A stretch of 32,000 bases of DNA from Acidobacteria bacterium Mor1 (GCA_001664505.1 CP011806.1:2285661-2317660); one strand, 5' to 3'; positions 11,653 to 29,663 are shown, numbered from the stretch's first letter. Program-made: numbers and translations. Notes: generated by a model not told the origin, from the sequence alone.

Positions 11653-12252
11653 CTAGAAGCGCACCGAGGCTCCGACCAACACCTCGACCGGGTCGATTCC
11701 CAGCACGTTGGAGTTCGCCTCGGGGGATAGCTCCATCTGCAGGTAGCGCAGTTGGGCATTGAACGACCAGCCGGATTCGCCACCCGGCACGTTGACGCCG
11801 AAACCCGCCCCGAAGATCAACTCGTCGTCGACGGGGGCACCGGGAGACATGCCCACCGGCTGGATGTCATCCCAGAGCATGTAGCCCAGCACGGGACCGG
11901 CGAACAGATCGACCTTCTCATTGCCGAAGTGGAAGTTGACGGCGCCGAGAATCCGGATGCCCTCGACGTCCCCGTCGTCCATGTCCGGCTGCCCGGGTTC
12001 CATGAAGATCAGCTCCGATTCGAACAGGCCCAGGGCCGGCTCGACGCCGATCGAATCGGTGACCATGAACTCGAGCCCTGCCTCGAAACCGAGGCTCTCG
12101 TCCAGTTCGGTGGTCTCCCCGCCCCCCGGATCGAAATCCGAGGTGGGCATGCTGTAGACCAGGTTGAAACGGAACGCCCGGTCACCTTCGGCCCAGGCGG
12201 TTCCGCCAGCCAGCAGGACGAGAATCAGGGCCAGGGCCCATCGTGAACGCAT
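11653..12252 (-). CDS. small outer-membrane beta-barrel protein (OmpW/OmpA-barrel-like)
   Basis: AAGGAG lies 7 nt upstream of ATG 12252. It has a signal peptide (MRSRWALALILVLLAGGTAWA), alternating amphipathic beta-strand patterns and a C-terminal ...VGASVRF typical of OMPs. Confidence 0.8.
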   Translation of the reverse strand: MRSRWALALILVLLAGGTAWAEGDRAFRFNLVYSMPTSDFDPGGGETTELDESLGFEAGLEFMVTDSIGVEPALGLFESELIFMEPGQPDMDDGDVEGIRILGAVNFHFGNEKVDLFAGPVLGYMLWDDIQPVGMSPGAPVDDELIFGAGFGVNVPGGESGWSFNAQLRYLQMELSPEANSNVLGIDPVEVLVGASVRF

Positions 12253-14349: not shown

Positions 14350-15030
14350 CTAGCGCAAAACCCGGTATCTCAGGTAGATCTCATCCCCTTCCCGGGTCAG
14401 ATCGGCAAGCTCCAGCCGGGTCTGGTCGGCCATGGCGAAGCCCGGCCCCTCCAGCAGGGTCGGAGCCTCCCGGCCGCCCAGGAGCGAGGGCGCCACGGTG
14501 ATGAACAGCTCGTCGAGCAGATCCGCCTGGGCCAGCGCCCAGTTGAGCTCTCCACCACCCTCGGCCAGCAATTGCTCGACGCCCCGCTCGTGGAGCCGCT
14601 CCAGCAGTGCCGCCATATCTACCCGGCCCGACCCGACTCTCCAGACTTCCGCCTTGCCCTCGAGAGCAGCGACCCGCTCGGCCGGCGCCTCGTCGACAGT
14701 GGCGACGATCAGGCTGTCCGCCCGCTCCGGGTTGAAGAATCCGGAGTCGGGATCCACCGACAAGCTGCCACTGACCAGCACGTGCACCAGTTCGCGCTGC
14801 TTGCCCAGGGACTCCCGGTAGGCCTGCATCTCGGCGTCCCGCACGTGGAGTGGCGGATCGTCTGCCCGCAGGGTTCCGGCACCGATCAGCACCGCGTCCG
14901 CCCGGGCCCGCAGCCGGTCCATGTTCTTCTTGTCGAAGGCGGAGGTGAACTTCGGGTACTCGCGGGCCGCCGAGGTGATCTTCCCGTCGGCGGTCATCGC
15001 CATGTTGAGGTAGACGTGGGGGCGCTTCAT
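14350..15030 (-). CDS. RibD C-terminal domain / dihydrofolate-reductase-like reductase
   Basis: Start set at ATG 15030 (MKRPHVYLNMAMTADGKITS...). The motifs RADAVLIGAGTLRADDP and VEQLLAEGGGELNWAL are typical of the RibD_C/DHFR-like family. The track start at 15159 adds an Arg-rich extension. Confidence 0.8.
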   Translation of the reverse strand: MKRPHVYLNMAMTADGKITSAAREYPKFTSAFDKKNMDRLRARADAVLIGAGTLRADDPPLHVRDAEMQAYRESLGKQRELVHVLVSGSLSVDPDSGFFNPERADSLIVATVDEAPAERVAALEGKAEVWRVGSGRVDMAALLERLHERGVEQLLAEGGGELNWALAQADLLDELFITVAPSLLGGREAPTLLEGPGFAMADQTRLELADLTREGDEIYLRYRVLR

Positions 15031-15268
15031 TGGATCTGGGCTCCTGCCGCCCTTTCCGGCGGGTCGGCATAGGGGAAGCATAGCGGCGCTCAGGGAGATG
15101 TCGAGCCGCGCGGGCCGGACTCCCCTGCTGCGTCCCCCCCGCGGCAGAGTCCGGACCATCGAAACTCCCGGGGCCTTCCTCGCGTTAGGCCCAACGAGAC
15201 CCGGCGCTCACACCGGCGAGGTGCGCGCGCTCGAGGGGGCGGGCCGACCCGCCGGAGGGGGGATCGCG

Positions 15269-17488
15269 ATGAGCAGTTCGAATCGCAGCGGACGCAACCG
15301 GCCGGAATCTGGACTGCGGGCCGTGCCTGACCGCCCGGCCGCCACCCTGCGGGAGCAGGGCTTCAGCCTCGGGGATTGGACGGTCGAGCCACGGCGCAAC
15401 CGGCTGGTCGGACCCGGCGGAGAAGAGCGCAAGCTGGATCCGCGGCTGATCGACGTGCTGATCGAACTGGCCTGCCGGCCCGGCGAGGTGTTCTCCCGGG
15501 ACCAACTGCTGGAGAGTGTCTGGAAGGACGTGTTCGTCAGCGAGAACACCCTGTCCCAGGCGATCTCCCGGCTGCGGCGCGCCCTCGGAGACGACCGCAA
15601 CGCTCCCCGCTACATCGAGACGATCAGCAAATCCGGGTACCGTCTGGTCGCCGAGGTCGCCTGGCCGGATCCCGCGGGACCGCTGCACGCGGTCCCCGCC
15701 GAAACCGCCGGCACCCACCGAGCGGATCATCCAGCGGCGACGGCAACCCCGGCGCGGCGTTTCCCGGTAGCGGCCTACACCATCGCCGGAGCGGCGCTGA
15801 TCGCGGTTGCCTTCGCCACCTGGTTCATGTTGCCCCGGGAGATCGCGACATCTCCGCTTCCGGTTCATCCCGAGTCGACGCTGGTCGGCACCCAGTTCGA
15901 ACCCTACCTCTCCCCCGACGGCAGCACCCTGGCCTTTGCCTGGCAGGGGCCGGCCCAGGACAACTGGGATATCTGGGTCCACCCCATCGAGGGAGATGCC
16001 CCGGTGCGCCTGACCGACGATCCGGCAACCGAACGGCTGCCGGCCTGGTCTCCCGACGGAAAGTCGGTAGCGTTCGTTCGCTTCGACCCCGCCGGCGGCC
16101 AGTGCGGCATCTTTCGCCGGGCGATCCTCGGCGGCGCGACCGAACGGCTGGCCGACTGCGTTCGCGGAATGCGCTCGCTGACCTGGTCCCCCGACGGCTC
16201 GACCCTGTGCCTTACCGGCGCCGACGCCCCCGACGAGCCCCGGGGTCTGCGCCTGCTTCAGCTCGACAGCGGCGAGGTCACCCTGCTGACCACGCCACCA
16301 GAGGGGTCACGGGGAGATGACGACCCTGCTTTCTCTCCGGACGGCCGCTGGATCGCCTTCGAACGCCACCAGAGCCGCCATCGCCACGACCTGATGGTCG
16401 TGCCGGTTTCCGGCGGAGAACCCCGGCCCCTGACCGACGACGCCTGGGGACAGCTCCGCGGGCTCGACTGGACCGCCGACGGCAAGGCGGTGGTCATCGC
16501 CTCCAACCGCAGCGGAAGGTTCCTGCTGTGGCGTGTGCCCCTGGCCGGCGGAGAGCTCGAGCGGCTGCCGATCGAGGATGACTGGGTGACCCAACCGAGC
16601 CTGTCTCGCAGCGGTGGCCTGCTGACCTATCGCACCTTCCGCGACGAGGTCGATGTCTGGGCCTATCCGGTGTCGGGTACGGCGGGTGCGCCGACCCGGC
16701 GAGTTCCCTCGACCCGCTCCGAACGGGAAGCGGCCTGGTCCCCCGACGGCCGCTCCATCGCGTTCATCTCCGACCGCTCGGGCACGGTGGAACTGTGGTC
16801 CTCGGCACCGGACGGCGGCGGCGCACGGCGTCACACCGATCTGGCAGGCCCACTCCCCGCCTCACCGGCCTGGTCAGCCGACGGCGAGCGAATCGTCTAC
16901 GACGCGGCGGTCTTCGGGCACTCGGACCTGTGGGAAGTTCCCCGGGACGGAAGGAGGCCGGTACGTCTGACCGACCACCCGGCCGAGGACCGCAACGCGA
17001 GTTTCTCCCGGGACGGACGCCGGCTCTACTTCGCCTCGGACCGCAGCGGCAGCTGGCAGATCTGGCGCCGAAGCGTAGATGGTGGCGAAGCGGAGGTGCT
17101 GACCCGGGACGGCGGCTTCCTGGCCCAGGAATCCCCCGACGGGCGGGAACTGTTCTTCGTCAAACTGGACGAGCCGGGTATCTGGCGCATGCCGAGCAGC
17201 GGCGGCGACGCCGAGCGGCTCCCGCTGGACCTCGACCTGGGAGACTGGGGTGGCTGGACCGCCACCGACGAGGGCATCTACTTCGTGATGCGCCGCCCCA
17301 AGAGCGTCGGCTACTTCGCCTTCGCCGACGGCCAGGTCCAGACGGTCTTCGAGACCGAGAAGACCGTGCCCTATCTCTCACGCACCCTGTCCCTTTCCGC
17401 CGACGGGGACACCCTGCTGGTGTCGATCATCGACCGCAGCGACGACGAGGTGATGCGGGTCCACGATCCCGAGGGCGTCCGCTTCTGA
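15269..17488 (+). CDS. membrane-anchored one-component regulator: CadC/OmpR-type winged-helix DNA-binding domain + TM + TolB-like (PD40) beta-propeller
   Basis: ATG 15269 is preceded by GGAGGGGGG. The wHTH block is WTVEPRRNRLVG...KLDPRLIDVLIELACRPGEVFSRDQLLESVWKDVFVSENTLSQAISRLRRALGDD...YIETISKSGYRL. The TM segment is FPVAAYTIAGAALIAVAFATWFML. At least 8 PD40-like repeats follow (PAWSPDGKSVAF, LTWSPDGSTLCL, PAFSPDGRWIAF, AAWSPDGRSIAF, ...). Confidence 0.85.
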   Translation: MSSSNRSGRNRPESGLRAVPDRPAATLREQGFSLGDWTVEPRRNRLVGPGGEERKLDPRLIDVLIELACRPGEVFSRDQLLESVWKDVFVSENTLSQAISRLRRALGDDRNAPRYIETISKSGYRLVAEVAWPDPAGPLHAVPAETAGTHRADHPAATATPARRFPVAAYTIAGAALIAVAFATWFMLPREIATSPLPVHPESTLVGTQFEPYLSPDGSTLAFAWQGPAQDNWDIWVHPIEGDAPVRLTDDPATERLPAWSPDGKSVAFVRFDPAGGQCGIFRRAILGGATERLADCVRGMRSLTWSPDGSTLCLTGADAPDEPRGLRLLQLDSGEVTLLTTPPEGSRGDDDPAFSPDGRWIAFERHQSRHRHDLMVVPVSGGEPRPLTDDAWGQLRGLDWTADGKAVVIASNRSGRFLLWRVPLAGGELERLPIEDDWVTQPSLSRSGGLLTYRTFRDEVDVWAYPVSGTAGAPTRRVPSTRSEREAAWSPDGRSIAFISDRSGTVELWSSAPDGGGARRHTDLAGPLPASPAWSADGERIVYDAAVFGHSDLWEVPRDGRRPVRLTDHPAEDRNASFSRDGRRLYFASDRSGSWQIWRRSVDGGEAEVLTRDGGFLAQESPDGRELFFVKLDEPGIWRMPSSGGDAERLPLDLDLGDWGGWTATDEGIYFVMRRPKSVGYFAFADGQVQTVFETEKTVPYLSRTLSLSADGDTLLVSIIDRSDDEVMRVHDPEGVRF

Positions 17489-17500
17489 CCGGCGGCGAAC

Positions 17501-17533
17501 CCGGCGGCGCGAACAGAACGAACGCGCCGCCGG
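17501..17533. terminator. bidirectional GC-rich hairpin terminator between convergent genes
   Basis: This is a perfect 11-bp inverted repeat: CCGGCGGCGCG (17501..17511) and CGCGCCGCCGG (17523..17533), with an 11-nt loop. It sits in the 56-nt gap between stop 17488 (+) and stop 17545 (-). Confidence 0.55.
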
Positions 17534-17544
17534 GAACCAATCGA

Positions 17545-20500
17545 TCAGGGACAGACCGCGCCGTTATCCACTCGCGGCAGACCGCCGGAACTGAGTCCGT
17601 AGTCTCCGGCCCCGCTCTCACGAACCAGGATGTAGTCCACCTGCCCGGGGTCGGGTCGTAGCGAGTCGAACTGGATCGCGGCGGCGTTGCCCGCACACTG
17701 AACCGGAGTGGCCGCTCCCAGGTCGATCCGGGAGCCGGTCGATGCGACGTCGGCCAGATCTCCCCAGATCGCGTCGACCGGTCGAGCCAGGGTGGTGCCC
17801 GTGGGACAGGCGCTCGCCGGCTCGAAGTCGATGGAGGGATCGAGGCCGACCCCGGCGAGGGCCACCGTCACACAGACATCGGCGGCGCAAAACGCCTCCT
17901 GTCCGTCGGTGCGGCCGTCGCAGTCATCGTCAGCGCCGTTACGACAACGTTCGACGGCGCCGGGGAACACCAGCGGGTCTTCGTCGTCGCAGTCTCCCGC
18001 GCAGACCGCGACCAGGTCACCGTCCACGTCGAGTTCGTCGGCGGGAAGCTGGCTGTCACAGTCGTCGTCGAGTCCATTGCAGAGTTCGGCGGCGCCCGGG
18101 TTGCGGTTGCCGTCGTTGTCGTCGCAGTCGTTCTGGCACAGCGCGTAGCCGTCCCGGTCGACATCCGCCTCGGCGATCAGCAGCGATCCGTCGCAGTCCG
18201 AGTCGACACCGTCGCAGGTCTCCGGCGCACCGGGGAACGCCGTGGCCAAGAGCGGCGCGCAGTCGCAGGCGTCGCCGAAGCCATCGCCGTCGCTGTCCGC
18301 CCAACCCTGGCGCACGTCCCAGCTGCCGTCGCAAGCGGCGGTCGGTGGGCCGGCGATCTGCGGATCGCAAACGTCCCCGATACCGTCACCGTCCAGGTCG
18401 AGCTGATCGGCGTTGGCCTGGGCCGGGCAGTTGTCGCAGGCGTCTCCCCGGCCGTCTCCATCGGAGTCGTCGTCGCCACCGAAGGCGGGATCGACATCCG
18501 AGGCGACGAAGGGGCAGAGATCGAAGGGGTCGGCGAACCCGTCCCCGTCTCGATCGCCGGGCTGCATCAGGAACACGTGGACCGCACCGGCACCGCCGGC
18601 ATCTCCGGGAGCGGACGTCAACAAGTCGGCGACGCCGTTCCCGTCGACGTCGCCGCCGGCAAGGGCGGCTCCGACGCGATCTCCGGAAGCACCGAGCACC
18701 CGGGCCCGAGCCGCCGGTTCGAGCAGTTGGAGATCCAGCAGGGATCCACGGCCGACGACGTTCAGCCCGACCACCCGGCCGGCCTGGGAGGCAGGACCGC
18801 TGGCCGCGTCCGCAGCACCGGCGACCAGCTCGGCGAAGCCCTCGCCGTCGAAGTCGGCCAGCAGCAACGCCTGGCCGTAGCCTCCGGCAAAGCTGCCGAG
18901 CACCGTGTGATCGAGACTTCCGTCGGTCACGTCGGTGGTCGTTCCCGGCAGCAGCATGGCGGCGCCCCGATGCAGGTAGAGCTTGCCCTGCCCGCCTAGT
19001 GCACCGGGCGCCGATAGCGCCAGGTCCGCCTTGCCGTCATCGTCGGCGTCGGCCATCACAACCTGAGCCGCGAGCCCGTCGCCGGCGGCAGCACCGTAGA
19101 GGGCGGCCACCCGGGAGAGCCCCAGCGCCAGGTCGAGCGGATCGCCGCTGTCGACGGCTGAATCCGGCTGCAGGTAGAGGACACCCGCTCCCGCCCGGGA
19201 TACCGGACTGGCGTCGGGACCGCCGTAGGCCAGTTCGTCGAGGCCGTTGCCGTCGACATCCCCCATGGCGACCTGGGCCCCGAGGGCTCCCCCGGCGTCG
19301 GCGCCGAGGATGCGGGTGGTCACCGCCGCCGCCTCGAGCTGCAGCGGGAAGCTGTCGGTGAGCGGGACGAGATAGACCGCGCCCCGTCCGCTGGGCGGCA
19401 GCGCGCCGAAGCCGGGGGCACCGACCAGGACTTCGCCGAGATCGTCACCGTCCCAGCGCCCGAAGGCGATGGAACTTCCGAGATGATCTCCGGGGTTCTC
19501 TCCGTAGATCGTGACGTCGGCGTTCTGGGGGTCGATCGCCACCGCCCCCTCGCGCAGCGGTCCGAGGAAACCGAACACCGCGCCCTCCTCGGCACCGGCG
19601 GCCCGGGACCAGCGAGGACAACCGACGAACAGATCGGTCTGCCCGTCCTCGTCGATGTCCCCGACGGCCAACGCCTCGCCACACCCGGCCGCCGACAGGT
19701 CCGAGAGGATCGACTCCGCCGGCTCGGCGGACAGATCCCGCTGGGCGGGGGCGCTGAGTGACGACAGATCTACCACGTGGACCCCGGCGTCCGGCGATGG
19801 AGCAGGCACCGTCAGCACCAGATCGATCCGGCTGTCGCCGATCAGGTCCCCGGCGGCCAACGCCGGAGCGATGGCCGCGGAGCTGCCGGGGCCCAGGATC
19901 GTCAGGTCGGCGCTCTCGCTTGCGAGATCGCTGTGGCGTTGCCGGGTACAGGCACTGGAGCAACCGTCGCCGTCGACGGCGTTGCCGTCGTCGCAGGGTT
20001 CGCCCGGCTCGGGAACGCCGTTGCCGCAGAGCGCTGGGTCGCACAGGTCGCCGGCACCGTCGCCGTCGGCATCGAGCTGGCCCGCATTGGCCACGTAGAG
20101 ACAGTTGTCGCTCACGTCGGCGATACCGTCCCCGTCCCGGTCGAGGGAGTAGATCTCGGTCTTGGCCGTTTCGGTATTGCCGTCGCTGTCGACGGCGTAG
20201 AAGCGAAGGGTGGTGTCTCCGTTGAGCACCAGGTCGGCGACCCCCGTGGGGAAGTACAGCACACCCGGCTCACCGGGCACCGGATCGAGGGCGCCGAAGC
20301 GCACGTAGAGATCCGCCGGTTCGTCGCTGCGCAGCTGCACGGCGATGCCGTCCTGCTGATACAGCCCGCCGGGAGGTGTCGCCTGGGTCGTGGGAGCGTC
20401 ACCGTCGGCTACCAGGTAGTCCCCCACCTGTCCGGAGATCGCCGCCAGCGCCGCCGGATCGCACGCGGCGGTGACGATGTCATCGACCAGGTCATCCATG

Positions 20501-22914
20501 CGGGCGGTCAGGTTCTGGATCTCACCGGGCAGCGAGGCAGCGGCGATCAGGGCATCGCCGATCACCGATGCGCCGCAGGTCACCTGGGAGGCCCGGGTGT
20601 TCTTGGAAGCGACCGGCACCAGTGGATCGATCTGCCCGCCCTCGAGTTCGAAGGCCTGAAGCACCGCCTCGGCCAGTGCCGTACCGGCGGTCTCGATGTG
20701 CCCCAGGTCGACACTGTTGCCCTGGGCGGCGTCGACCACCGCGGCGACCACGTCGGGCCGCATGCTGAGAGCCTCGGCGTACTTGCCGAACACTCCCGCC
20801 TCGGCGTCCTCTTCGCTCTGGCTGTCGTCGAGTTGTTGCGCGCCACGCACCGCACCGGCCACCGCGCCGGATTGATCGAGAACGAGAGCGGACACCTCCG
20901 CCACCGCCAACGCGTCGTAGCCCTGTTCGTCCATGCCGGTCTGCACCGCCGGAGGCAGCGCTCCGCTGCGCAGGTGCTCGGTCAGCACCGCCTCGCTGCG
21001 CAGACCCGGATCGGCGAGAGCCTCGAGCACGGTAAACAGCGCGTCGGCGAACGGTGCGTAGCCGTCAAAAGCGGTCAGCCCGCTATCTCCGGCGGCGTGT
21101 TCCACCAGATAGGCGTGGAGGCCCAGGTCCATCTGAGGCAACCCGTCTTCCAGTTCGCTGGAGCTACATCCCTGGCCGATGCGGCCCAGCTCGCCGGCGC
21201 ACTGCCCGGCGAGGAACCCCAGTTCCACCAGGCGCTGCTCCAGCTCGTGGCCGCTGAGGGCGGCCCGGGCGCTGGCACCCGGATCGAGAGGGAGATCGAC
21301 GATGGCGGTATCGGCAGCGAAGGCCGCCTGAGCCGCGGCGAGCCACGCCGCGCCGTCCTGCCAACCGGCCGCCGGCTCGGCGGACGCGATCTGGAACCGG
21401 GGCACCAGACGCTGAAACACGTTGGAACCGGCAATGGCGCCGACCGTCTGCTCCTCACCGCGGGTGGAGAACAGGTTGAAGAACGACCCGCCTCCGTCGG
21501 TGAACACCTGGGGCCCACGGCGGAGTTCGGCACCCCGCAGATCGATGGCCGTGACCTCGACACCCACCTGGGGCAGCCCGCCGAGCACCGTGCGGCCGGA
21601 CAGGCGCAGCGCACCCGCCGGGTTCGTCGGCGAGGCATTGCCGCATCCGGCGCCGCCGCAGTCGGCATCGGTGGTGCAGGCACCGCCGAACGCCGTGCCG
21701 CCGCAGGTCAGGCTGCAGCCGGAGCCACCGCAATCATCCTCGCTCTGACAGACGAACCCGGCGCTGCCGCCGCCGATGCAGTAGCGATTGGTGAACAGAT
21801 CGGTCCCCTGAAGCAACTCCCGCAGATCGTCAATGCCGTCACCGTCGGAATCGTTGGCCGGCAGCAGCGGATCGAACCCGGGGCGGGCCCGCAGAGACTC
21901 GTCGACCTCGTAGAGGTCGGGAATCCCGTCGAAATCGGTGTCGACCCCGAGCGGCTGGTTCACCGCGAAGGCCGCGATGCGCGTCGGCCCCTGCTCCAGG
22001 GTGTCGGTGCGTTGGGCGAAGAAGCGGATCTCGGTGTTCTTGTAGACGTAGAGCGGGCGCATGTACGGATGCGCCTGGACGTAGGTCCCCGCCTGCCCCG
22101 GCACCGGGTCGGTGCCGTCGACGGTGTAGTAGATCGAGAGACAGCGGGGCTGCCCGGCCTCGACGCAGGGATCGGGACGGGTCGGGAGCAGCATCACCGG
22201 GAAGGTGTTGCCCACGTTGCCGCTCGGCGGCGAGGCGTAGGCGTCGATGGCGTTGACGTCGCCGGGGTCAGCCTGGTCTCCCACCGGCAGCAGCGACCAT
22301 GAGTCGCGCATGCGATTGACCACGATCCGGTCGGCCCCGTGAATGCCGTCGAGGTCGGCGAACAGCTCGTCGTCGATCAACGGCGTGATCCCCCCTCCCA
22401 GCGGCGGTGCCGCCACGAAGGTGCCGTTGCCGACCCCCTCGAAGAAGTACTCCGTCGCGCCGGCGAGCCCGGCTCCGGGATCCAGGGCCAGGTGCAGCAC
22501 CACGTCGATGCCGCTGCCCAGGTTGGAGGCGAACTCCCCGCTGCGCAGGCCGATCACCAGCTCCCCCGGGTTGCCCACCGGCGTGCTGAAGCCTGCATTG
22601 AAGTTCCCGCTGCCGTCTCCGAGCAGAATGCCCAGGGTCGGCTGGGAAACACCGAAACGATCGAGTTCGTCGTAGGCCAGGATCAGATCGAGATCGCCAT
22701 CCCCCTCGACGTCACCGACGGTGACGCCGTGGGCCAGATCGCCCACGGCCCAGCGGACCGGGGTGCGAAGACTGCCGTCGAGATTCCGCAGTTCGATCTC
22801 GACGGTGCCGTGGAAGGACTGGGCGCACAGGGGCGCGGCGGCGGCGCACAGGCCGATTGCCAGCGCCATGCAGATGAGTATTCGGATACAGCGGTTCATT
22901 CCAGGCGTCCTCAT
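17545..22914 (-). CDS. giant secreted mosaic protein: FG-GAP/VCBS repeats, thrombospondin type-3-like Ca-binding repeats, Myxococcus-type Cys-rich repeat, MopE-like 'putative metal-binding' repeats
   Basis: The start is revised to ATG 22914 (ATGA overlap with the upstream stop). ATG 22899 is an alternative. The signal peptide is MRTPGMNRCIRILICMALAIGLCAAAAPLCAQS. FG-GAP/VCBS units include GDVEGDGDLDLI, GDIDEDGQTDLFVGCP, GDVDGNGLDELAYGGP, ADADDDGKADLALSAPG and GDVDGNGVADLLTSAPG. TSP3-like units are DRDGDGIADVSDNCLYVANAGQLDADGDGAGDLCDP and DSDGDGRGDACDNCPAQANADQLDLDGDGIGDVCDP. The Cys-rich repeat is CGNGVPEPGEPCDDGNAVDGDGCSSAC. MopE-like units are DSDGDGFGDACDC..., DVDRDGYALCQNDCDDND... and DVDGDLVAVCAGDCDDEDP.... 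Confidence 0.85.
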   Translation of the reverse strand: MRTPGMNRCIRILICMALAIGLCAAAAPLCAQSFHGTVEIELRNLDGSLRTPVRWAVGDLAHGVTVGDVEGDGDLDLILAYDELDRFGVSQPTLGILLGDGSGNFNAGFSTPVGNPGELVIGLRSGEFASNLGSGIDVVLHLALDPGAGLAGATEYFFEGVGNGTFVAAPPLGGGITPLIDDELFADLDGIHGADRIVVNRMRDSWSLLPVGDQADPGDVNAIDAYASPPSGNVGNTFPVMLLPTRPDPCVEAGQPRCLSIYYTVDGTDPVPGQAGTYVQAHPYMRPLYVYKNTEIRFFAQRTDTLEQGPTRIAAFAVNQPLGVDTDFDGIPDLYEVDESLRARPGFDPLLPANDSDGDGIDDLRELLQGTDLFTNRYCIGGGSAGFVCQSEDDCGGSGCSLTCGGTAFGGACTTDADCGGAGCGNASPTNPAGALRLSGRTVLGGLPQVGVEVTAIDLRGAELRRGPQVFTDGGGSFFNLFSTRGEEQTVGAIAGSNVFQRLVPRFQIASAEPAAGWQDGAAWLAAAQAAFAADTAIVDLPLDPGASARAALSGHELEQRLVELGFLAGQCAGELGRIGQGCSSSELEDGLPQMDLGLHAYLVEHAAGDSGLTAFDGYAPFADALFTVLEALADPGLRSEAVLTEHLRSGALPPAVQTGMDEQGYDALAVAEVSALVLDQSGAVAGAVRGAQQLDDSQSEEDAEAGVFGKYAEALSMRPDVVAAVVDAAQGNSVDLGHIETAGTALAEAVLQAFELEGGQIDPLVPVASKNTRASQVTCGASVIGDALIAAASLPGEIQNLTARMDDLVDDIVTAACDPAALAAISGQVGDYLVADGDAPTTQATPPGGLYQQDGIAVQLRSDEPADLYVRFGALDPVPGEPGVLYFPTGVADLVLNGDTTLRFYAVDSDGNTETAKTEIYSLDRDGDGIADVSDNCLYVANAGQLDADGDGAGDLCDPALCGNGVPEPGEPCDDGNAVDGDGCSSACTRQRHSDLASESADLTILGPGSSAAIAPALAAGDLIGDSRIDLVLTVPAPSPDAGVHVVDLSSLSAPAQRDLSAEPAESILSDLSAAGCGEALAVGDIDEDGQTDLFVGCPRWSRAAGAEEGAVFGFLGPLREGAVAIDPQNADVTIYGENPGDHLGSSIAFGRWDGDDLGEVLVGAPGFGALPPSGRGAVYLVPLTDSFPLQLEAAAVTTRILGADAGGALGAQVAMGDVDGNGLDELAYGGPDASPVSRAGAGVLYLQPDSAVDSGDPLDLALGLSRVAALYGAAAGDGLAAQVVMADADDDGKADLALSAPGALGGQGKLYLHRGAAMLLPGTTTDVTDGSLDHTVLGSFAGGYGQALLLADFDGEGFAELVAGAADAASGPASQAGRVVGLNVVGRGSLLDLQLLEPAARARVLGASGDRVGAALAGGDVDGNGVADLLTSAPGDAGGAGAVHVFLMQPGDRDGDGFADPFDLCPFVASDVDPAFGGDDDSDGDGRGDACDNCPAQANADQLDLDGDGIGDVCDPQIAGPPTAACDGSWDVRQGWADSDGDGFGDACDCAPLLATAFPGAPETCDGVDSDCDGSLLIAEADVDRDGYALCQNDCDDNDGNRNPGAAELCNGLDDDCDSQLPADELDVDGDLVAVCAGDCDDEDPLVFPGAVERCRNGADDDCDGRTDGQEAFCAADVCVTVALAGVGLDPSIDFEPASACPTGTTLARPVDAIWGDLADVASTGSRIDLGAATPVQCAGNAAAIQFDSLRPDPGQVDYILVRESGAGDYGLSSGGLPRVDNGAVCP

Positions 22915-25667
22915 GGCTGGGGTCCGGAGCAGGTGGGACCCGCAGGGAGGTGGCAAGTCGTGTCGGGGCCGTACTGGAAGCTGAACTCGCCGTTCAGGTC
23001 GTAGCGAACGACGGTGTACGTGTACCAGGTGTCCGGCTCCGTATCGAGGTCGGTCCAGGTGACCGAGGTATCGAAGGTGGTCTGGCAGGTGATCATCGGC
23101 GAGACCTGTTGCCAGAATCGGGATCCTTCGCGGCGGCGGAAGACGATGAATGGCGCGTCGTTGCCTGCGCTGCATCCGGCGGGGTCGGCGGACCAGAACA
23201 CCTCGATGCCGCCGGCGGGGGCCGGGGTCAACAGCAGGCTCGCGTTGACCACGTCGAACTGCCGCGGGTTCTGCCGCTGCCAGTAGGGCCAACTCAGCTC
23301 CAGATCGCCGATTCCGAAACCGTCCCAGGCGTAGGGCTTGACCTTGCCGGGCACCCCACCCCAACCGATGGCGTGCAGATGCAGCACCACGTTGTTCGAT
23401 TCCCCGACCTTGACCTTCATCGTGTAGAGCGAGGTCGCCGGGTCGTAGGTCAGGAAACGGCCGCTGGCCGGCTCGACGTTGGTGATCGTATTCTCGAGCG
23501 CCTGGGCACCCGGCTTGACCACCCAGGAATCGGTATTGGTTCCGGGCTGGCTTCCGAAGTTCTGCTGGCCGAAGTGATCGACGTAGCCCGGCGGGATGTT
23601 CGGATCCGGATCTTCGCCGTCGACCAGATAGCTGGTCCAGAGCGAGAAGCCCAACAGCGCCTTCGGGCTCAGCGAATAGAACTGGATGCGGATCCAGTCC
23701 TCGCCGTCGCCGTCGTCCTGCAGGTCGAGTAGCACCTTCTTGATCGTCGGCGCCGGCAGCGGCACGTTCAGCTTGAACAGGAACGACGCGGGATCCGAGA
23801 AGGCGCCGAAGTTCCCGCTGGGGTCGATGGTGCGCACCTTGTACCAGATCTTCGAATCGATCATCGGCTCGAAATCCGGCGACCAGGGTGAGGTCGTGAC
23901 CTCGGGCCCGGGCACGTACTTGACTCCGTCGAAGGAGCGGTAGACCCGAACGCCCCAGGCGTCATTCGGCTTCTGGATCTCGATCTGGGGCGGACAGTCG
24001 GGCCCCGTCAGGATCGTCAGGTCCCCCTCTTCCTGCTGCCAGCGCTCGTCGAAGGTCGTGTCCCGGCAAACGTCTCCCGGGTTCTCCTCGCAGCAGCGAA
24101 GAGTCAGGGTTGCCCGCCCCGGCGCCACCAGGTCCCGGGGCACGCACGGCACGAATCCGCTCAGAGGGCTCGGATTGCCTGCCGCGTCCAGGGCCCGGGC
24201 CGCGTAGAAGAAGGTGGTGCCGGCGTCGCCGGCCTGGACCGAGGTATCGACGAAGGTGGCTCGACTGCCCGGTGCCACGCTGGACTGGAGCAACGTGCCG
24301 GCCCGCCAGGAGGGAGGCAAACGGTCGAGGTTCAGATCCCTGGGCACTCCGAGCACACGGTAGATCTCGTAGCTCTCGGTGCCGTCGACCGATTCGTCGT
24401 TGCGCTCCCAGGAGATCTCGCAGACCTCGTGGCCCTGGTCGAGGACCCGCGTACTCTGAATCAGCGCCGGTTGCTCCGGCGCGTCCCGGTCCAGCACCTC
24501 GCAGGGCACCGGCGTCGTCGGCGTGCCCAGGTCGCCGAACAGATTGCGCGGCAACATCTGGTAGCAGTAGCTCTGACGCAGCTGCACCGGATCGAGGGGG
24601 GTGTCGCTGCCGTCGTCCCGGAAGTTGAACGCCTGGACGTACTCGAACACGGCGTCGAGTTCATCGGGGGTCATGCTGTTGAGCGCCGGGATGTCGTGGG
24701 GGGTCGCCGGGTCGGCGGCGTCGCCGATCTGCCGCCGGTAGAAATCACGCAGGGTGCTACCGGCGACCTGGGCGTCATCTCTCCCGCCGGGATGGCAGGA
24801 CTGGCACTGGGCCGCAAACAGGCTGGCGCCCTGCTTCTGCCGTCCCGGCTTGGGAGGCAACACCGTCACCGAGCTTGCCCGCACCACGTCGGGCGCGCCG
24901 GGCGCCATCGGCGGGCAGCTCCCGTCGGGATTGGCCTGGGTGCGCAGCACCTCGTAGCCGAACCCGCGCCACTCGTCAGGCGAGGAATCCCAGCGCAGGA
25001 AGGCCGCCTGGTGCCCCCGGGCGTCGCCGGGGTCGATGCAGGTCGGGTTCTGTGCGCCGGCGTGGGGTTCGTAGGTTCCCGCCGTCGCCGAGGCGCGGCC
25101 CAGCCGTTCCGCCGGCGCTCCGACGCCGTCGAGGCCCCACAGTTCGTACACGTAGGTCGTGCCGGGGGTCACGTTCTCGTCGAGATAGCCGAGGCCCAGG
25201 GCTACTGCCGCCATGTAGTTCTGCTCGGGCAGGTAGCGCAGCTGGGCGCGGCTGATCTCGGGAGCGTTGGGGTCCTGGATCAGCAGGAGCTCGACGGCAT
25301 ATTCGCTACCGAAGCTCTCCTGGATCCACTGCAGGGCATCTTCGTTTCCGACGGTGGTGAACAGGTCCTGGATTTCCTGGACTTCGGTCATCGGCTCGAT
25401 CGGATCGAGGTTCTGCAGGGTGAAGTCGGCGGTTCCCGCCTCGCGACGCATCACGTCGAAGGCGGAGTAGCGCTGGATGCCCTCGACGGCGCGCCAGCGC
25501 AGCAGGATTCGGGGAGCACTGTCGTCGGCCACGGCGACGACCTCGAGGCGTTCGGCCGGGGGTGCGGCCTGGAGCGGCCCGGTGAGGAGGGCGGCCAGGA
25601 CGCAGAGCGCGAGTGCGAACACCCGGGCACACGCGTGTCCTTGGGTCACGTCTATTCCTTGTCTCAT
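22911..25667 (-). CDS. secreted multi-Fn3-like protein with embedded mono-haem c-type cytochrome module
   Basis: Start revised to ATG 25667, with GAGG 9 nt upstream, 11 nt after the upstream stop. The signal peptide is MRQGIDVTQGHACARVFALALCVLAALLTGPLQA. Fn3-like signatures include ILLRWRAVEGIQRYSAFDVMRRE, AFLRWDSSPDEWRGFGYEVLR, CEISWERNDESVDGTESYEIYRV, FFYAARALDAAGNPSPLS and WYKVRTIDPSGNFGAFSDP. The cytochrome c block is GASLFAAQCQSCHPGG...NSMTPDELDAVFEYVQAF, with CQSCH at 24806..24792. Confidence 0.8.
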   Translation of the reverse strand: MRQGIDVTQGHACARVFALALCVLAALLTGPLQAAPPAERLEVVAVADDSAPRILLRWRAVEGIQRYSAFDVMRREAGTADFTLQNLDPIEPMTEVQEIQDLFTTVGNEDALQWIQESFGSEYAVELLLIQDPNAPEISRAQLRYLPEQNYMAAVALGLGYLDENVTPGTTYVYELWGLDGVGAPAERLGRASATAGTYEPHAGAQNPTCIDPGDARGHQAAFLRWDSSPDEWRGFGYEVLRTQANPDGSCPPMAPGAPDVVRASSVTVLPPKPGRQKQGASLFAAQCQSCHPGGRDDAQVAGSTLRDFYRRQIGDAADPATPHDIPALNSMTPDELDAVFEYVQAFNFRDDGSDTPLDPVQLRQSYCYQMLPRNLFGDLGTPTTPVPCEVLDRDAPEQPALIQSTRVLDQGHEVCEISWERNDESVDGTESYEIYRVLGVPRDLNLDRLPPSWRAGTLLQSSVAPGSRATFVDTSVQAGDAGTTFFYAARALDAAGNPSPLSGFVPCVPRDLVAPGRATLTLRCCEENPGDVCRDTTFDERWQQEEGDLTILTGPDCPPQIEIQKPNDAWGVRVYRSFDGVKYVPGPEVTTSPWSPDFEPMIDSKIWYKVRTIDPSGNFGAFSDPASFLFKLNVPLPAPTIKKVLLDLQDDGDGEDWIRIQFYSLSPKALLGFSLWTSYLVDGEDPDPNIPPGYVDHFGQQNFGSQPGTNTDSWVVKPGAQALENTITNVEPASGRFLTYDPATSLYTMKVKVGESNNVVLHLHAIGWGGVPGKVKPYAWDGFGIGDLELSWPYWQRQNPRQFDVVNASLLLTPAPAGGIEVFWSADPAGCSAGNDAPFIVFRRREGSRFWQQVSPMITCQTTFDTSVTWTDLDTEPDTWYTYTVVRYDLNGEFSFQYGPDTTCHLPAGPTCSGPQP

Positions 25668-25678
25668 GGATCGATTCC

Positions 25679-28600
25679 TCAGAGAGAGCATTTGACCTTG
25701 GGGCCGGACATCTTGATCTTGAACTTGGGCGGGGTCTTGCCGGTGACGTTGCCGCGCACCACGCAGGACGCGCACCAACCGTCGTTGAGCACGTCCGAGG
25801 GCGAATCCCATTCGTCCTCTTCGCAGAAGCCGAAGCCTCCGCCGACCCACATGTCGCCGGCGAGCTTGAACACGTCGCCGTCGGTGTTGCCCAGCAGGGT
25901 CAGATCGCCGCGAACCGAGACGAGACAGGCGCCCTTGCCGGATACCCAGCCGCGCACCTTGCCGCCGAAGTTGTCGGAGATGTACCAACCGCCGACTTCC
26001 ATCCCGGCGCTGACGCGCAGCAGGCAGCCGAAGTCGAAGATGTTGCCCTGGACTCCCAGACGGGCGTAGCCCCCCTGGAAGGAGTTGAGGTTGTTGAGGA
26101 ACTTGCCGACGGTGGGATCCAGCGACTTGAGCGGCTCCATCGTCTTGCAGTTGCCCAGCAGGATGTCCCCGTGGGCGCCGTAGCCGTTGAACTTGAGCTT
26201 CAGGCCGGCATCGAAGTACCAGTCCCCGTCGGACCAGTACTTGAGGGTCATTCCGGCCTTGTCGAAGCCGATGCCCGACAGGCCTCCCTTGGTCAGGTCC
26301 AGCGAGCCGGTGAGGCTGTTGAAGGTGAAGCTCGGCGGGCTGCCGCTGACGTCGAAGTCGAAGTCCCACTGCATCCCGGGCACGCTGGGGAAGTCGATGC
26401 TCTGCTCGGCCGGCATGGACATCGCGCCTGCGATCTGACGCCGGCTGAACTCCTGGATCGGCTGCAGCGCACCGTTGCTGGTTTCCTTGACGTGCCGGTC
26501 GATCGAGAGTGTCGAGCGGTCCAGCCCGAAGAACTGACCGCCGGTGTCGATGGTCGCGTCGAGGAACGCCAGATCCGCTCCGTCGGCAGACAGATCCAGG
26601 TGCCCGGTCATCTTCGACGCGTTCATCCCCGGAGCGGCCACGGCAAAGGAGGTCTGCAGGTCGGGATGATTGGCCAGGTCGGCCAGAGCCCCGCTGTCGT
26701 GAAGCGCCGTGGTCAGCGCCTGGGGTTCGGGCAACGCCCCTCCCAGCTTCGCCAGCGCGCCGTCATAGGCCCCGGCAAAGGGGTTGAGCAGTGAGGCCGG
26801 CACGATGGTGTCCAGGTCGCCCCGGGCGGCAGGCAGGATCGCGTCCCACAGACGCAGCACGCTGCCGGCACCCAGATCGGAGCGGGTCAGGCCGTGACGG
26901 GTCTGGATCCCCGAGGCGACCGGAACCGAGCCGAGCTGCACCGAGCGCTGGCCACCCCCCTGGTCGGCGTAGCCGAGGAACACGCCGACGCCGTTCTCGT
27001 TGTCGCCGTCACCCGGATCCTTGGTGCCTTCGGGGCGGAAGTAGTCCAGCCGGTACTGCAGGTCGATGGTGCCGCTGGCCATGGTCCGCGAGGCCAGGAT
27101 CGACGACTTGCTCGGAACGTCGGGGAAGCCCGGCTCGTGGACGTCGACCTGATAGGTCGCGGCAACCACGTCGGTGCGGCGAATGACGGTGTCCCCTTCG
27201 GTGGAGCCGAACCAGGGCACGTCGATCTCGCCGATGGCGTCGTAGCGGCCCAGCGGCTGAGTCGGCGGCGGAAAACCGTCGCAGTCGTAGACCTGGCACT
27301 CCGAGGGGAAGCCGGCCCAGGGTTGCAGCTCGAACTCGGAAACGTCGTAGGTGTAGGGCTGCAATCCCAGACTGTTGGGCTCGAACTCGAACTGGGTGAA
27401 ATCGATCGGTTTGATGGCGCCGGGGACCCCGTTGGGATCCAGCGAGAAGTCCGACGTCGGCGTCGGCTGGAAGTGCGGCACCGGCGTCGATGCGGTGACT
27501 TCGACGCTGGTCGCCTTGTCCCCGTTGCACTGGACGTCGGTGTCCCCCGGGACCGACGTGAAGGCCAGACCGTAAGGCAGATACTCGGCGTCCCAGTACT
27601 TGAGCTTGCCCGGCGCGATGCCGCTGGGTACGTCGGCGTCCTTGGGTTCGCCGCAGTTGCAGAGGCGCATGTCGCCGAAGGGGATCATCGTCGACGAGGG
27701 CCAGGGGAAGTTGATCGCGCCCCGCATGACCGTGTCGGCGTATTCGGAGCGATTGCCCTTGAACGCGTGGCCCCAGGAGTTGAAGTCCATCTTGAAGCCG
27801 TTGGGATCGTTCAGCGGAGTCGGGTCGATGCCGCCGTCGAACACCCCGGTCACCCCGGAGCCGCGCACGAAGAACACCAGCTCCTTCTCCAAATCGTCGG
27901 CGGGAATGCTCTTGATCACCGGCGGCAGTTCGTTGACCGATGCGGCCCAGTCGGGTGGCGTCGCCGCTCCCGGACAGACCGGAGACCAGATTCCCGCGTC
28001 GCAGGTGCCGCCCGGGCAGTCGCTGTCGTTGCTGCAGCGGTTGTTGGCGTTGGTTCCGCCGACGCACATCAGATTGCGGTTGTAGTTCAGCCCGGCATAG
28101 AGGCCGCGCCCCTCGGGAGCGAACCCACGGGCCAGCACCTGGACGTCCTGGGGGTTGCCCAGGCCACCCGGCAGGAAGGTGTCCGCCTGGAGCGGCGGAA
28201 TCCAGAGCGTGCCGCAACCGAGGTCGGTCAGGCTGTTGAAGGTAAAGGTGAACGGTTCCGGCCCGGTATCTCCGGGCTGCTGCTCGTTGAGATCTGCGAC
28301 CCCGGCGAGGATGCCGCCGTGCTGGGTGATCTGTGGGCCGAGCCGGTCATCGTTGAGGGTGAAGCGCCGGCTCTGGATCGCGTCGTCACAGATCTCCCGG
28401 GGCCCGTATTCGAGCCACATGGTGCCGCCGTCGAACCCGCCGTCGACGAAGGTGCCGTCGACCATCGTCGCGGCGGCCGGGCCGTCGAGCCGCACCCACA
28501 CCCCGTCGGGGAAGGCCGGTTCGAAGTCGACCTCGGCGGTCGAGGGAAGATCCAGCTCCAACTGGAATCCCAGGTGGGTGAACGAGACGTTGCGTGGCGC

Positions 28601-29470
28601 CCAGGAGGCGTGGTCCAGCCACCCGGCATTCCAGCGGGCGTTGCAGTTCCAGGTCAACCCGGGCTCGGGAATGCGGCAGCCGACCTCTCCGGCGGTCGCG
28701 CCGGATGCGGGGACGACCACCTCGTAGGCTGGCCCGATGCCGCCGATGGTGTCGAGACTCACCCGGTCCTGTTCGAAAGTCACGTCCCCCGGAGTCATGC
28801 GGAACGGCATGCCGTCGGGCCAGAAGCGGAACGACCCGTTGGTGTTGGTCTCCTGGAAGCGGAAGGTCAGATCCTGCTTCAGCCGCACCTCGTTGAAGTT
28901 GATCGTCTTGCCGCCGGTGGAACGCACGCTGTTCGGATAGACCAACGTGGCCTGGTTGCCGGTGGTGGCATCGGTGCGGGCGCCGTCGCTGCCCCGGAAC
29001 AGCACCTGGGGAATCACGTAGTTGAGGTTCCCCTCGGCGACGCACTCGGTGCGCAAATCGTGATTCTGGTTGGGGACGTAGGTCGTGGTGTCGTCGGCCG
29101 GCACGTAGGCCGGCTCGGGGCCGATGTTCGGGTCCTTCACCACATCGCCCAGGAAGAAGATGTTCATCCAGTCTTCCTGGGGAGCGCAGAGACCCAGATC
29201 CTCGTAGGGACCGAACTCGACGCTGATCTCACCGTCGAAGCTGAAGGTCCCGTCCCCGTTGTCGGTGCACAGATGGCACTCCTCCACCGTGGCCCGGATC
29301 TCGAACTCCGGGTCGCCGGCGGCAAACAGGAACACGTCGGATCTGAAGTCGCAGCGACTGACCGAACCCTCGACACAGGTCGAGGGCGCCGGCCCGGCCA
29401 GAGTCGCCGATGTGGCGGCCAGGGCCAGGACAATCGGAAGCCATCGCGATTTTCCGGTTCGCCTAAACAT
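25679..29470 (-). CDS. large secreted protein of unknown function (orphan, 1263 aa)
   Basis: Start revised to ATG 29470, with GAGG 6 nt upstream. The signal peptide is MFRRTGKSRWLPIVLALAATSATLAGP. The protein is Gly/Asp/Pro/Thr-rich with apparently beta-rich composition and scattered Cys pairs (e.g. NRCSNDSDCPGGTCDAG). I recognise no domain. The frame is coherent over 3.8 kb while the alternative frames are Arg/Gly-rich junk. Confidence 0.75.
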   Translation of the reverse strand: MFRRTGKSRWLPIVLALAATSATLAGPAPSTCVEGSVSRCDFRSDVFLFAAGDPEFEIRATVEECHLCTDNGDGTFSFDGEISVEFGPYEDLGLCAPQEDWMNIFFLGDVVKDPNIGPEPAYVPADDTTTYVPNQNHDLRTECVAEGNLNYVIPQVLFRGSDGARTDATTGNQATLVYPNSVRSTGGKTINFNEVRLKQDLTFRFQETNTNGSFRFWPDGMPFRMTPGDVTFEQDRVSLDTIGGIGPAYEVVVPASGATAGEVGCRIPEPGLTWNCNARWNAGWLDHASWAPRNVSFTHLGFQLELDLPSTAEVDFEPAFPDGVWVRLDGPAAATMVDGTFVDGGFDGGTMWLEYGPREICDDAIQSRRFTLNDDRLGPQITQHGGILAGVADLNEQQPGDTGPEPFTFTFNSLTDLGCGTLWIPPLQADTFLPGGLGNPQDVQVLARGFAPEGRGLYAGLNYNRNLMCVGGTNANNRCSNDSDCPGGTCDAGIWSPVCPGAATPPDWAASVNELPPVIKSIPADDLEKELVFFVRGSGVTGVFDGGIDPTPLNDPNGFKMDFNSWGHAFKGNRSEYADTVMRGAINFPWPSSTMIPFGDMRLCNCGEPKDADVPSGIAPGKLKYWDAEYLPYGLAFTSVPGDTDVQCNGDKATSVEVTASTPVPHFQPTPTSDFSLDPNGVPGAIKPIDFTQFEFEPNSLGLQPYTYDVSEFELQPWAGFPSECQVYDCDGFPPPTQPLGRYDAIGEIDVPWFGSTEGDTVIRRTDVVAATYQVDVHEPGFPDVPSKSSILASRTMASGTIDLQYRLDYFRPEGTKDPGDGDNENGVGVFLGYADQGGGQRSVQLGSVPVASGIQTRHGLTRSDLGAGSVLRLWDAILPAARGDLDTIVPASLLNPFAGAYDGALAKLGGALPEPQALTTALHDSGALADLANHPDLQTSFAVAAPGMNASKMTGHLDLSADGADLAFLDATIDTGGQFFGLDRSTLSIDRHVKETSNGALQPIQEFSRRQIAGAMSMPAEQSIDFPSVPGMQWDFDFDVSGSPPSFTFNSLTGSLDLTKGGLSGIGFDKAGMTLKYWSDGDWYFDAGLKLKFNGYGAHGDILLGNCKTMEPLKSLDPTVGKFLNNLNSFQGGYARLGVQGNIFDFGCLLRVSAGMEVGGWYISDNFGGKVRGWVSGKGACLVSVRGDLTLLGNTDGDVFKLAGDMWVGGGFGFCEEDEWDSPSDVLNDGWCASCVVRGNVTGKTPPKFKIKMSGPKVKCSL

Positions 29471-29505
29471 GCAGTACCTCGCTGATCGTTGTGCTGCCCT
29501 CCGGG

Positions 29506-29592
29506 CCGGTTGCGGGGTACATACCGGTTGCGCCCATCCGGTAACAGCGGTCCTGCAGAAACCGGGAAACGCCCCGGACACGCCGTTACCGG
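29506..29592. promoter_or_regulatory. array of CCGGT(T/A) motifs in the divergent intergenic region (candidate operator sites or RNA stem)
   Basis: CCGGTTGCG occurs at 29506..29514 and again at 29524..29532, a direct repeat with 18-bp periodicity. CCGGTAAC (29538..29545) is inverted against GTTACCGG (29585..29592), extendable to 8+3 bp with one mismatch. A further AACCGG lies at 29560..29565. All sit in the 193-bp gap between the giant operon (start 29470, -) and the kinase gene (start 29664, +). Confidence 0.3.
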
Positions 29593-29663
29593 CGGCTTGA
29601 AAGCGGTATGAAGCCCGTTGCCGGGGTAGACTGCGCCCGCGACCATGCCCTCGAGGAGGCACC

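Follow-up and report, generated by a model that had tools for sequence, protein, structure and literature searches.

The described systems closest to the locus reported here are the Myxococcus MtsC-type adhesins, which combine FG-GAP/VCBS and thrombospondin-3 repeats, the adhesins of type V secretion (autotransporters and inverse autotransporters), and the Tc toxin complexes, encoded by three adjacent genes (TcA/TcB/TcC) with very large products that include a beta-propeller protein. Tc subunits are not known to have Sec signal peptides. To these can be added the giant proteins of Omnitrophota, whose genes neighbor secretion loci of a type II-like kind (bioRxiv 10.1101/2023.11.21.568195). Here, we analyze a locus of Acidobacteria bacterium Mor1 (GCA_001664505.1) that shares features with all of them and in which three adjacent genes, here called A, B, and C, code for very large exported proteins. 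It lies in a stretch of 32,000 nucleotides (CP011806.1:2285661-2317660), referred to as the window and numbered from its first letter, and had been singled out as a candidate cell-surface system in an earlier description made from the sequence alone (the original prediction). The three genes form one coupled operon and a co-conserved unit that keeps the same order across distant lineages. We propose, with a probability of roughly 0.5, that their products belong to a single module, a calcium- and disulfide-stabilized envelope or surface assembly located outside the cytoplasm and likely adhesive or matrix binding.

Gene layout and conservation of the triad

The three genes, delimited by their open reading frames (ORFs) and translations, and the signal peptide of A, read from the sequence, are placed as follows.

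25679..29470, minus strand: gene A, 1263 amino acids (aa)
22911..25667, minus strand: gene B, 918 aa
17545..22914, minus strand: gene C, 1789 aa
29396..29470, minus strand: signal peptide of A, aa 1-25, cleaved between ATLA and GP

The products amount to 3970 aa (1263 + 918 + 1789) over a span of 11.9 kb. The original prediction had described packed, co-directional genes joined by an 11-nt gap with a Shine-Dalgarno (SD) sequence and by an ATGA overlap, and both the coordinates and the junctions were confirmed. The TGA stop codon of A (25681-25679) is followed by an 11-nt spacer, GGAATCGATCC, and then by the ATG of B at 25667, with an SD-like TGAGGAA made up of the stop codon of A and the spacer; the ATGA at 22914-22911 is the overlap of the B stop with the C start. 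Terminator-like sites are absent from the coding strand within the operon, the only two found being antisense, and a promoter scan found no sigma-70-type consensus. We conclude that A, B, and C constitute one coupled operon. They are real genes and not chance ORFs, because all three have full-length homologs, at 34 to 89% identity. Long ORFs of the plus strand over 17545-29740 (among them 19777-22302, 841 aa; 26894-29485, 863 aa; 24429-26069, 546 aa) were rejected as genes and are regarded as high-GC shadow ORFs; in related loci, they recur only antisense to A, B, and C.

Each of the three proteins begins with a basic n-region, a hydrophobic core, and a cleavage site of small residues. In B, cleavage falls after residue 34 (between LQA and AP) and in C after residue 31 (between LCA and QS). 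The signal-peptide features are kept in the orthologs of A, B, and C, which bears out the earlier assignment of a signal peptide to each protein; residue A25 at the cleavage site of A is invariant in the first six orthologs and ~90% conserved among 13, and the N terminus is hydrophobic in all orthologs. A Kyte-Doolittle scan gave no convincing further transmembrane (TM) helix in any of the three. The single other hydrophobic window, aa 1673-1692 of C (17840-17899), CAADVCVTVALAGVGLD, is borderline, contains Asp, lies ~100 aa before the C terminus, and is probably not a membrane helix. All three proteins are acidic, with isoelectric points of 4.40 (A), 4.46 (B), and 4.05 (C), and they contain 27, 18, and 48 cysteines, respectively; their domains are of the kinds seen in extracellular proteins.

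The NCBIfam, TIGRFAM, and Pfam models for sorting tags (PEP-CTERM, MYXO-CTERM, LPXTG, and the C-terminal domain of type IX secretion, T9SS) gave no match in A, B, or C, the LPxTG motif is absent, and neither a lipobox nor secretion-system genes accompany the three genes, in agreement with the lack of a sorting tag or adjacent secretion gene noted earlier. The host-like composition that had been described also holds, with a GC content of 0.66 to 0.70 and a GC content at third codon positions (GC3) of 0.84 to 0.88, similar to the neighboring genes.

Related loci were taken from the contigs of the five homologs of A found with a word index and of the 27 homologs of B, a metagenome scan added 15, and gene order was established by tblastn of A, B, and C of the window against all loci. 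The co-conservation of the three genes, on which the original prediction hinged, was examined in this way, and the order A, B, C is kept at every informative locus, ~12 of them orthologous: the genes follow each other on one strand in every contig that is long enough (L001, L002, L007, L009, L012, L013, L015, L016, L019, L023, and the P0002 contig), and the first two are visible in shorter contigs (L004, L005, L010, L011, and L017). When distant relatives of A were looked up, a B-like and then a C-like gene lay downstream in four cases out of four, as listed here.

L025, a metagenome-assembled genome (MAG) of Omnitrophota: A-like, 1592 aa; B-like, 1006 aa; C-like, 1538 aa, with FG-GAP
L026: A-like, 2011 aa; B-like, 1085 aa; C-like, 1148 aa, with TSP_3 / beta-helix
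L027: A-like, 1482 aa; B-like, 926 aa; C-like, 1237 aa
L028 (GCA_030425385.1): A-like, 2238 aa; B-like, 1092 aa; C-like, 1178 aa

BLAST detects homology of A with A, B with B, and C with C, both among these four loci and to the window, and all of their triad proteins bear signal peptides. All-against-all clustering of every flanking ORF revealed no other gene common to the loci, leaving A, B, and C as the only conserved ones. The triad is a co-conserved unit with the same order across distant lineages, and the synteny rules out that unrelated adhesins came to lie side by side by chance.

Individual loci have further genes next to the triad. Two extra co-directional genes (895 and 97 aa) are found directly after C in L007 (18424-21412); they have no Pfam match and do not occur in the other loci. 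The triad of L026 is flanked by T2SSF and T2SSE (MshEN domain) genes of the type II secretion/type IV pilus type (15019-17972), which may hint at an export route, at this one locus only.

Domain content of proteins A, B, and C

Searches of Pfam, NCBIfam, and the PDB sequence set gave no match for protein A. Profiles of the whole protein against PDB, and of its C-terminal domain against PDB and Pfam, returned noise only (ribosomal protein L30e, E = 0.26; DUF6923, E = 0.1). Its orthologs are full length at 34 to 48% identity, rising to 82 to 89% in an uncultured Acidobacteriota MAG, the closest relative. The word-indexed protein search found five matches, with the single sequence and with a 13-sequence profile alike, while 611 relatives emerged when 1.84 billion representative proteins were searched exhaustively with a profile (463 of them at E < 1e-10 and 108 at E < 1e-30). 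The scarcity of word-index matches is a limit of the index and not a sign of rarity, and the description of A as an orphan has to be given up. Around 15 of the 611 are full-length orthologs; the rest, of 1300 to 2500 aa, have in common two parts of A.

27521..27883, minus strand: mid module of A (first constant module), aa ~530-650
25682..26290, minus strand: C-terminal domain of A (second constant module), aa 1061-1263

Both constant modules are present in 101 of the 104 long relatives, and the second is always found at the extreme C terminus. The C-terminal domain is not a portable tag, because it is paired with the mid module in nearly all of these proteins. The conserved residues of the mid module are R536, G539, G542, P589, P591, F598, G607, and W626; no catalytic motif was seen among these positions, which are Gly, Pro, aromatic residues, and one Arg and look structural. 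The C-terminal domain is rich in Gly and aromatic residues and predicted to be all beta, with C1182, C1216, and C1233 invariant and C1149 ~90% conserved. The largest subfamilies terminate in W-x-V/Y-D/E-Y/L/F, and the clade of the window, like several others, terminates in C-S/A-L, C-E, C-N, or CCY. Neither constant module matches Pfam or any solved structure. The N termini vary, with FG-GAP in 5 and CBM96 in 3 of the 25 relatives sampled, as well as He_PIG, Big_2/9, PKD, CARDB, and dockerin modules, and some relatives contain CBM96, disaggregatase-repeat, or beta-helix modules. The overall pattern is that of a constant C-terminal part behind a variable N-terminal part of extracellular type.

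Protein B, with 27 homologs, is according to its model a rod of the Fn3 type with a putative mono-heme insert. The AlphaFold2 model, computed with an alignment of 26 orthologs, has a predicted local distance difference test (pLDDT) score of 84.4 and contains approximately seven Fn3-like beta-sandwiches, with a helical insert in domain 1 (aa 96-156) and a four-helix cytochrome domain within domain 2. A Foldseek comparison of this model with PDB, the kind of structure check suggested earlier, gave only tandem-Fn3 proteins (MyBP-C/titin, gp130, and contactins; E values from 3.5e-19 to 1e-7). At the sequence level, the Pfam fn3 model matches a single ortholog, P0016. The insert was placed from the PF13442 match, the alignment, and the model.

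24630..24860, minus strand: cytochrome c insert of B (class I, putatively mono-heme), aa ~270-346

The sole library match of B is PF13442 at aa 277-344 (E = 1.2e-5), which with 26.0 bits falls below the cutoff of 27; the ortholog P0025 reaches 30.3 bits with the same model. The heme-attachment motif CQSCH occupies aa 288-292 (nt 24792-24806), and C288, C291, and H292 of this CxxCH, together with H324, are invariant in the 26 aligned sequences; the usual distal Met (Met333) is not conserved, whereas His324 is. The modeled helices span aa 277-287, 306-314, and 334-344. Attachment of c-type heme needs export to the periplasm. The cytochrome insert is a feature of the Acidobacteriota clade; among the distant triads, it is present in the B-like protein of L027 and absent from those of L025, L026, and L028. 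As it is missing in three of these four, redox chemistry is not the core function of the triad but an accessory of some clades. The earlier label of a redox-capable Fn3 protein thus stands for the Fn3 rod and the invariant CxxCH within this clade, but it does not extend to the distant triads, three-quarters of which lack the heme domain. A thioester, as in alpha-2-macroglobulin, was also considered for B and discarded, as the protein has no CxEQ motif. The insert also illustrates the gain or loss of a heme domain by a structural protein.

Protein C had been described as a calcium-binding protein similar to integrin and thrombospondin, and its domain content agrees with this. Three regions can be recognized, the first (with approximate bounds) from Pfam and visible repeat motifs, the second from PF11617 (three matches, E = 4.7e-22), and the third from its CHB_HEX_C/Fn3_assoc domain and two DxDxDG motifs.

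18565..19917, minus strand: predicted FG-GAP beta-propeller region of C, aa ~1000-1450
17875..18327, minus strand: three MopE-type Cys-rich repeats of C, aa ~1530-1680
21799..22320, minus strand: conserved core of C, aa ~199-372

The FG-GAP model (PF01839) matches four stretches with 43.2 bits, against a cutoff of 22.1, and FG-GAP and FG-GAP_3 stretches are found at aa 1289-1364 and 1415-1448. The three Cu-binding_MopE (PF11617) matches score 78.3 bits and show the repeat alone, copper binding not being implied. There are also matches to CHB_HEX_C_1 (33.2 bits; CHB_HEX_C/Fn3_assoc domain) and to the NCBIfam model myxo_disulf_rpt, along with 13 calcium-type DxDxDG motifs, and the thrombospondin-3 match is subthreshold (20.2 bits versus a cutoff of 25). 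In comparisons with the four distant C-like proteins (L025 to L028), the conserved core alone aligns in every case; the MopE repeats are absent from these proteins. We also considered C as an ortholog of MtsC (NF047638) and rejected this, as the match is partial (aa 1453-1698), reaches 74.6 bits against a cutoff of 350, and comes without a MYXO-CTERM.

Control region, neighboring regulators, and the rest of the window

The operon is separated by a divergent intergenic region from a kinase gene, and a second regulatory gene converges on its other end.

29471..29663, 193 bp: divergent control region with a CCGGT/ACCGG cluster
29664..32000, plus strand, running off the window: Hanks-type Ser/Thr kinase (Pkinase, TM, and TPR), divergent from A
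15098..17488, plus strand, convergent: CadC/ToxR-type regulator (Trans_reg_C, TM, and PD40)

The kinase and the intervening 193 bp with CCGGT repeats were as described earlier: PF00069 matches with 148.2 bits, and a TM segment (aa 382-411) is followed by TPR_12 (174 bits) and TPR_10 repeats. The densest CCGGT/ACCGG cluster of the window lies in the intergenic region, where there are 6 motifs per 100 nt; elsewhere, there are 0.5. Around the start of A, the window and its closest relative, L006, have 100% identity over ~100 nt (-80 to +21; 29450-29550 in the window and 9150-9275 in L006), in comparison with 92% identity for the first 270 nt of the coding sequence. Three AACCGG repeats lie within this identical stretch, two of which belong to a GCAACCGG unit with a spacing of 18 nt, and the stretch is probably an operator or promoter. 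CCGGT was discarded as a general operator, being conserved only in L006 and not upstream of more distant orthologs. Upstream of A, there is no Rfam match to a leader RNA or riboswitch, and the fold is not unusual (z = 0.6).

A kinase is found in the same divergent position in L006 (78% identity) and L013/L014, and we consider it a likely regulator of the triad, though not an obligatory one; regarding synteny with the kinase, which the original prediction had suggested checking, the triad is conserved but the kinase is not its fixed companion. In the convergent gene, described earlier as a CadC-TolB regulator, we found Trans_reg_C (PF00486, 70.7 bits at aa 108-183), a TM segment (aa 221-247), and five PD40 repeats, the likeness to CadC being one of architecture only; the gene is not part of the conserved unit. 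Its counterparts in three other loci are loose, PD40-bearing neighbors occur in four distinct loci with differing architectures, and its association with the triad is weak. The bracket of two sensors that had been proposed around the operon does not hold up, as the kinase and the CadC-like gene vary by locus and are not fixed parts. Approximately 8 of ~15 distinct loci have a sensor or regulator gene upstream, and the neighbors of this type are the following.

Window, L006, and L013: Ser/Thr kinase with TPR
L002: TPR protein cut by the contig end
L001 and the P0002 contig: Ser/Thr kinase with PD40
L028: Ser/Thr kinase with WD40, directly upstream
L009: extracytoplasmic function (ECF) sigma factor, anti-sigma factor, and TPR protein
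P0002 contig: sigma-54 response regulator
L003 (31-2192), L015 (6151-9132), and the P0002 contig (downstream of C): Y_Y_Y/Reg_prop histidine kinase, with a periplasmic propeller

A response regulator stands beside the Y_Y_Y/Reg_prop histidine kinase in L003 (GerE type) and in the P0002 contig. Regulation of the triad by envelope sensors, recurrent but in a form that varies in type, seems plausible.

Three other features of the window lie outside the operon. At 1491-5054 (plus strand), there is a gene for a 1187-aa protein with TPR and CHAT domains, with a GC content of 0.578 and a GC3 of 0.615, compared with 0.84 to 0.91 elsewhere in the window; low GC extends over the entire first ~6 kb, suggestive of a segment of more recent acquisition. 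At 5666-10753 (minus strand), a gene of the GH92 alpha-mannosidase family (1050 aa, with CHB_HEX_C and F5/8-type-C domains) adjoins a sodium:solute symporter gene, and the two look like a pair for mannoside use, unrelated to the triad. Last, a small outer membrane beta-barrel gene (OMP_b-brl, 199 aa) at 11653-12252 (minus strand), 5 kb from the end of gene C, is not conserved beside other triads.

Proposed function and comparison with known systems

In the arrangement that we favor, an envelope or surface assembly of A, B, and C, protein A would be the defining subunit, with the mid module and the C-terminal domain serving for assembly or anchoring. Its N-terminal part would be exposed and confer specificity, being swapped in relatives for Ig-like, FG-GAP, CBM96, or dockerin modules. 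Protein B could act as an elongated spacer or stalk of approximately seven Fn3-like domains, in which the cytochrome insert would have been acquired in this clade, and C might be a binding head, with an FG-GAP propeller like that of integrin alpha joined to calcium-binding repeats of the thrombospondin-3 type and to Cys-rich repeats. The 193-bp divergent region would be where transcription begins, under the control of the adjoining envelope sensor, here the TM Ser/Thr kinase with TPR.

Several points weigh against this reading. No outer membrane export route or anchor is encoded nearby, and the proteins could equally well stay entirely within the periplasm; repeats of the thrombospondin-3 type are also found in the periplasmic parts of OmpA-like proteins. 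Casting A, B, and C as base, stalk, and head is guesswork based on the types of domains that they contain. The AlphaFold2 model of A (aa 130-1263, from a shallow alignment of six sequences) has a pLDDT of 36, and Foldseek with that model gave nothing below E = 0.27. A phylum was assigned for two lineages only, Acidobacteriota and Omnitrophota. Regulator types differ between loci, and such kinase families are very abundant in these phyla, for which reason the adjacency may be partly due to chance.

Two alternatives concern the location of the proteins. The C-terminal domain of A might be a beta-barrel inserted into the outer membrane by Bam, which would carry A outward in the manner of an autotransporter, with B and C docking on it. 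This possibility, which we consider unlikely, draws on the invariable position of the domain at the extreme C terminus behind variable, passenger-like N termini, on its richness in Gly and aromatic residues with ~11 to 12 predicted long strands, and on the W-x-V/Y-D/E-Y/L/F end of the largest subfamilies, which resembles the C-terminal signal that outer membrane proteins bear; the nonsignificant Foldseek list of the poor A model includes the invasin beta-domain, BamA, OmpG, and VDAC, a lead only. However, nothing in A matches autotransporters, intimin, any beta-barrel family, or a solved structure, and the Foldseek matches, from a model with a pLDDT of 36, all have E > 0.27. Three invariant cysteines and a near-invariant one suggest a disulfide-bonded soluble domain, unusual in membrane barrels, and the clade of the window and several others end without an aromatic residue (C-S/A-L, C-E, C-N, and CCY). 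A large periplasmic scaffold, with all three proteins staying inside the outer membrane, would agree with export by Sec signal peptides only, without a secretion system, sorting tag, or lipobox, with heme attachment in the periplasm, and with neighboring sensors whose periplasmic TPR, PD40, WD40, or Y_Y_Y domains could monitor such a structure. We hold this to be rather improbable, given that CBM96, dockerin, PKD, and CARDB modules in the N termini of A relatives are typical of extracellular proteins, that a rod of approximately seven Fn3 domains and a 1789-aa partner seem long for a periplasm, and that one distant triad (L026) adjoins F and E genes of type II secretion/type IV pili.

The other alternatives concern activity. 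The triad could bind and help to digest polysaccharide or the envelope of other cells, since adhesion together with cell-wall digestion has been proposed for the giant proteins of predatory Omnitrophota (bioRxiv 10.1101/2023.11.21.568195), some relatives of A contain CBM96, disaggregatase-repeat, or beta-helix modules, and genes for M4 or S8 peptidases adjoin the triad in L027 and L015. But those peptidase neighbors are not conserved across loci, no catalytic domain was detected in A, B, or C of the window, the conserved residues of the constant modules look structural, and the Omnitrophota giants are a different class, of >30,000 aa and with other domains (bioRxiv 10.1101/2023.11.21.568195), all of which makes an apparatus for attack or degradation improbable. 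We give very little credit to an extracellular system for electron transfer or copper handling that would combine the heme of B with the 'Cu-binding' MopE repeats of C. The CxxCH and His324 of B are indeed invariant in the 26 orthologs, and PF11617 matches C three times; yet L025, L026, and L028 have B-like proteins without the insert, the distant C-like proteins lack the MopE repeats, a single heme per 918 residues is unlikely to form a conduit, and PF11617 is a generic Cys-rich repeat whose motif match alone does not imply copper binding. A broader possibility, which for now seems doubtful, is that the triad is a new cross-phylum machine for the display and assembly of giant surface proteins in diderms, in which the C-terminal domain of A would be a new outer membrane anchor or translocator for swappable N termini, with B and C as the obligatory stalk and calcium-dependent head; the triad would then amount to a new branch of surface-display or secretion systems. 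If the C-terminal domain does have this role, it would represent a new means of surface display for giant bacterial proteins.

In soil, Acidobacteriota rank with the most abundant bacteria, and their attachment to particles, roots, and other cells is little understood. The A family comprises hundreds of sequence clusters, and an A-type gene is part of the fixed triad at every locus inspected, including those from Acidobacteriota and Omnitrophota. This unit is without a name, family model, solved structure, or paper: we found no description of the triad in the literature, none of the family libraries searched names the system, and the PADLOC anti-phage models gave 0 families with A, B, and C. 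The original prediction, likewise, knew of no described system with such a composition. As a defined, conserved set of genes, the triad lends itself to study by surface proteomics, cryo-electron tomography, and genetics.

Like the MtsC-type FG-GAP/VCBS and thrombospondin-3 adhesins, and like the eukaryotic integrin alpha and thrombospondin, C is exported and acidic and contains FG-GAP, DxDxDG, and Cys-rich repeats, but it differs from MtsC in its score with NF047638, far below the cutoff, and in having no MYXO-CTERM tag. No MtsC-type protein is known to occur together with A- and B-type partners in a fixed triad. The A family resembles the type V adhesins in its variable, passenger-like N terminus before a constant C-terminal domain of ~200 aa and in the aromatic residue at the end of many subfamilies; unlike them, A shows no similarity to the autotransporter or intimin barrel, has conserved cysteines in the C-terminal domain and a second constant module ~700 aa upstream, and comes with two obligatory partner genes. 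The similarity to the Tc complexes is one of layout, three adjacent genes for very large proteins including one with a beta-propeller, as A, B, and C contain no SpvB, TcdB-mid, RHS/YD, or toxin domain and do have Sec signal peptides. With the Omnitrophota giants, the locus has in common the large size and export of its proteins and modules of the thrombospondin-3, dockerin, and Ig-like types (bioRxiv 10.1101/2023.11.21.568195), and one triad does come from an Omnitrophota MAG (L025) and another has T2SS-type F/E genes beside it (L026). Each of the giants, however, is the product of one gene, is tens of thousands of residues long, and is accompanied by a conserved secretion locus (bioRxiv 10.1101/2023.11.21.568195), whereas the triad consists of three genes for 0.9 to 2.2 kaa each, without conserved secretion genes. 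The insert of B (aa ~270-346) is built like the class I c-type cytochromes (PF13442/PF00034), with the CxxCH right after an N-terminal helix and three further helices, but it differs from them in lying within an Fn3-like domain of a 918-aa rod, in conserving His324 in place of the distal Met, and in being dispensable in related triads. The building blocks (Fn3, FG-GAP, thrombospondin-3, Cys-rich repeats, and class I cytochrome c) are ordinary in bacterial surface proteins, and the locus is, by its type, one for large adhesins. The novelty lies in the fixed triad, in its two families that lack annotation (A, and B outside the heme insert), and in its spread across phyla.

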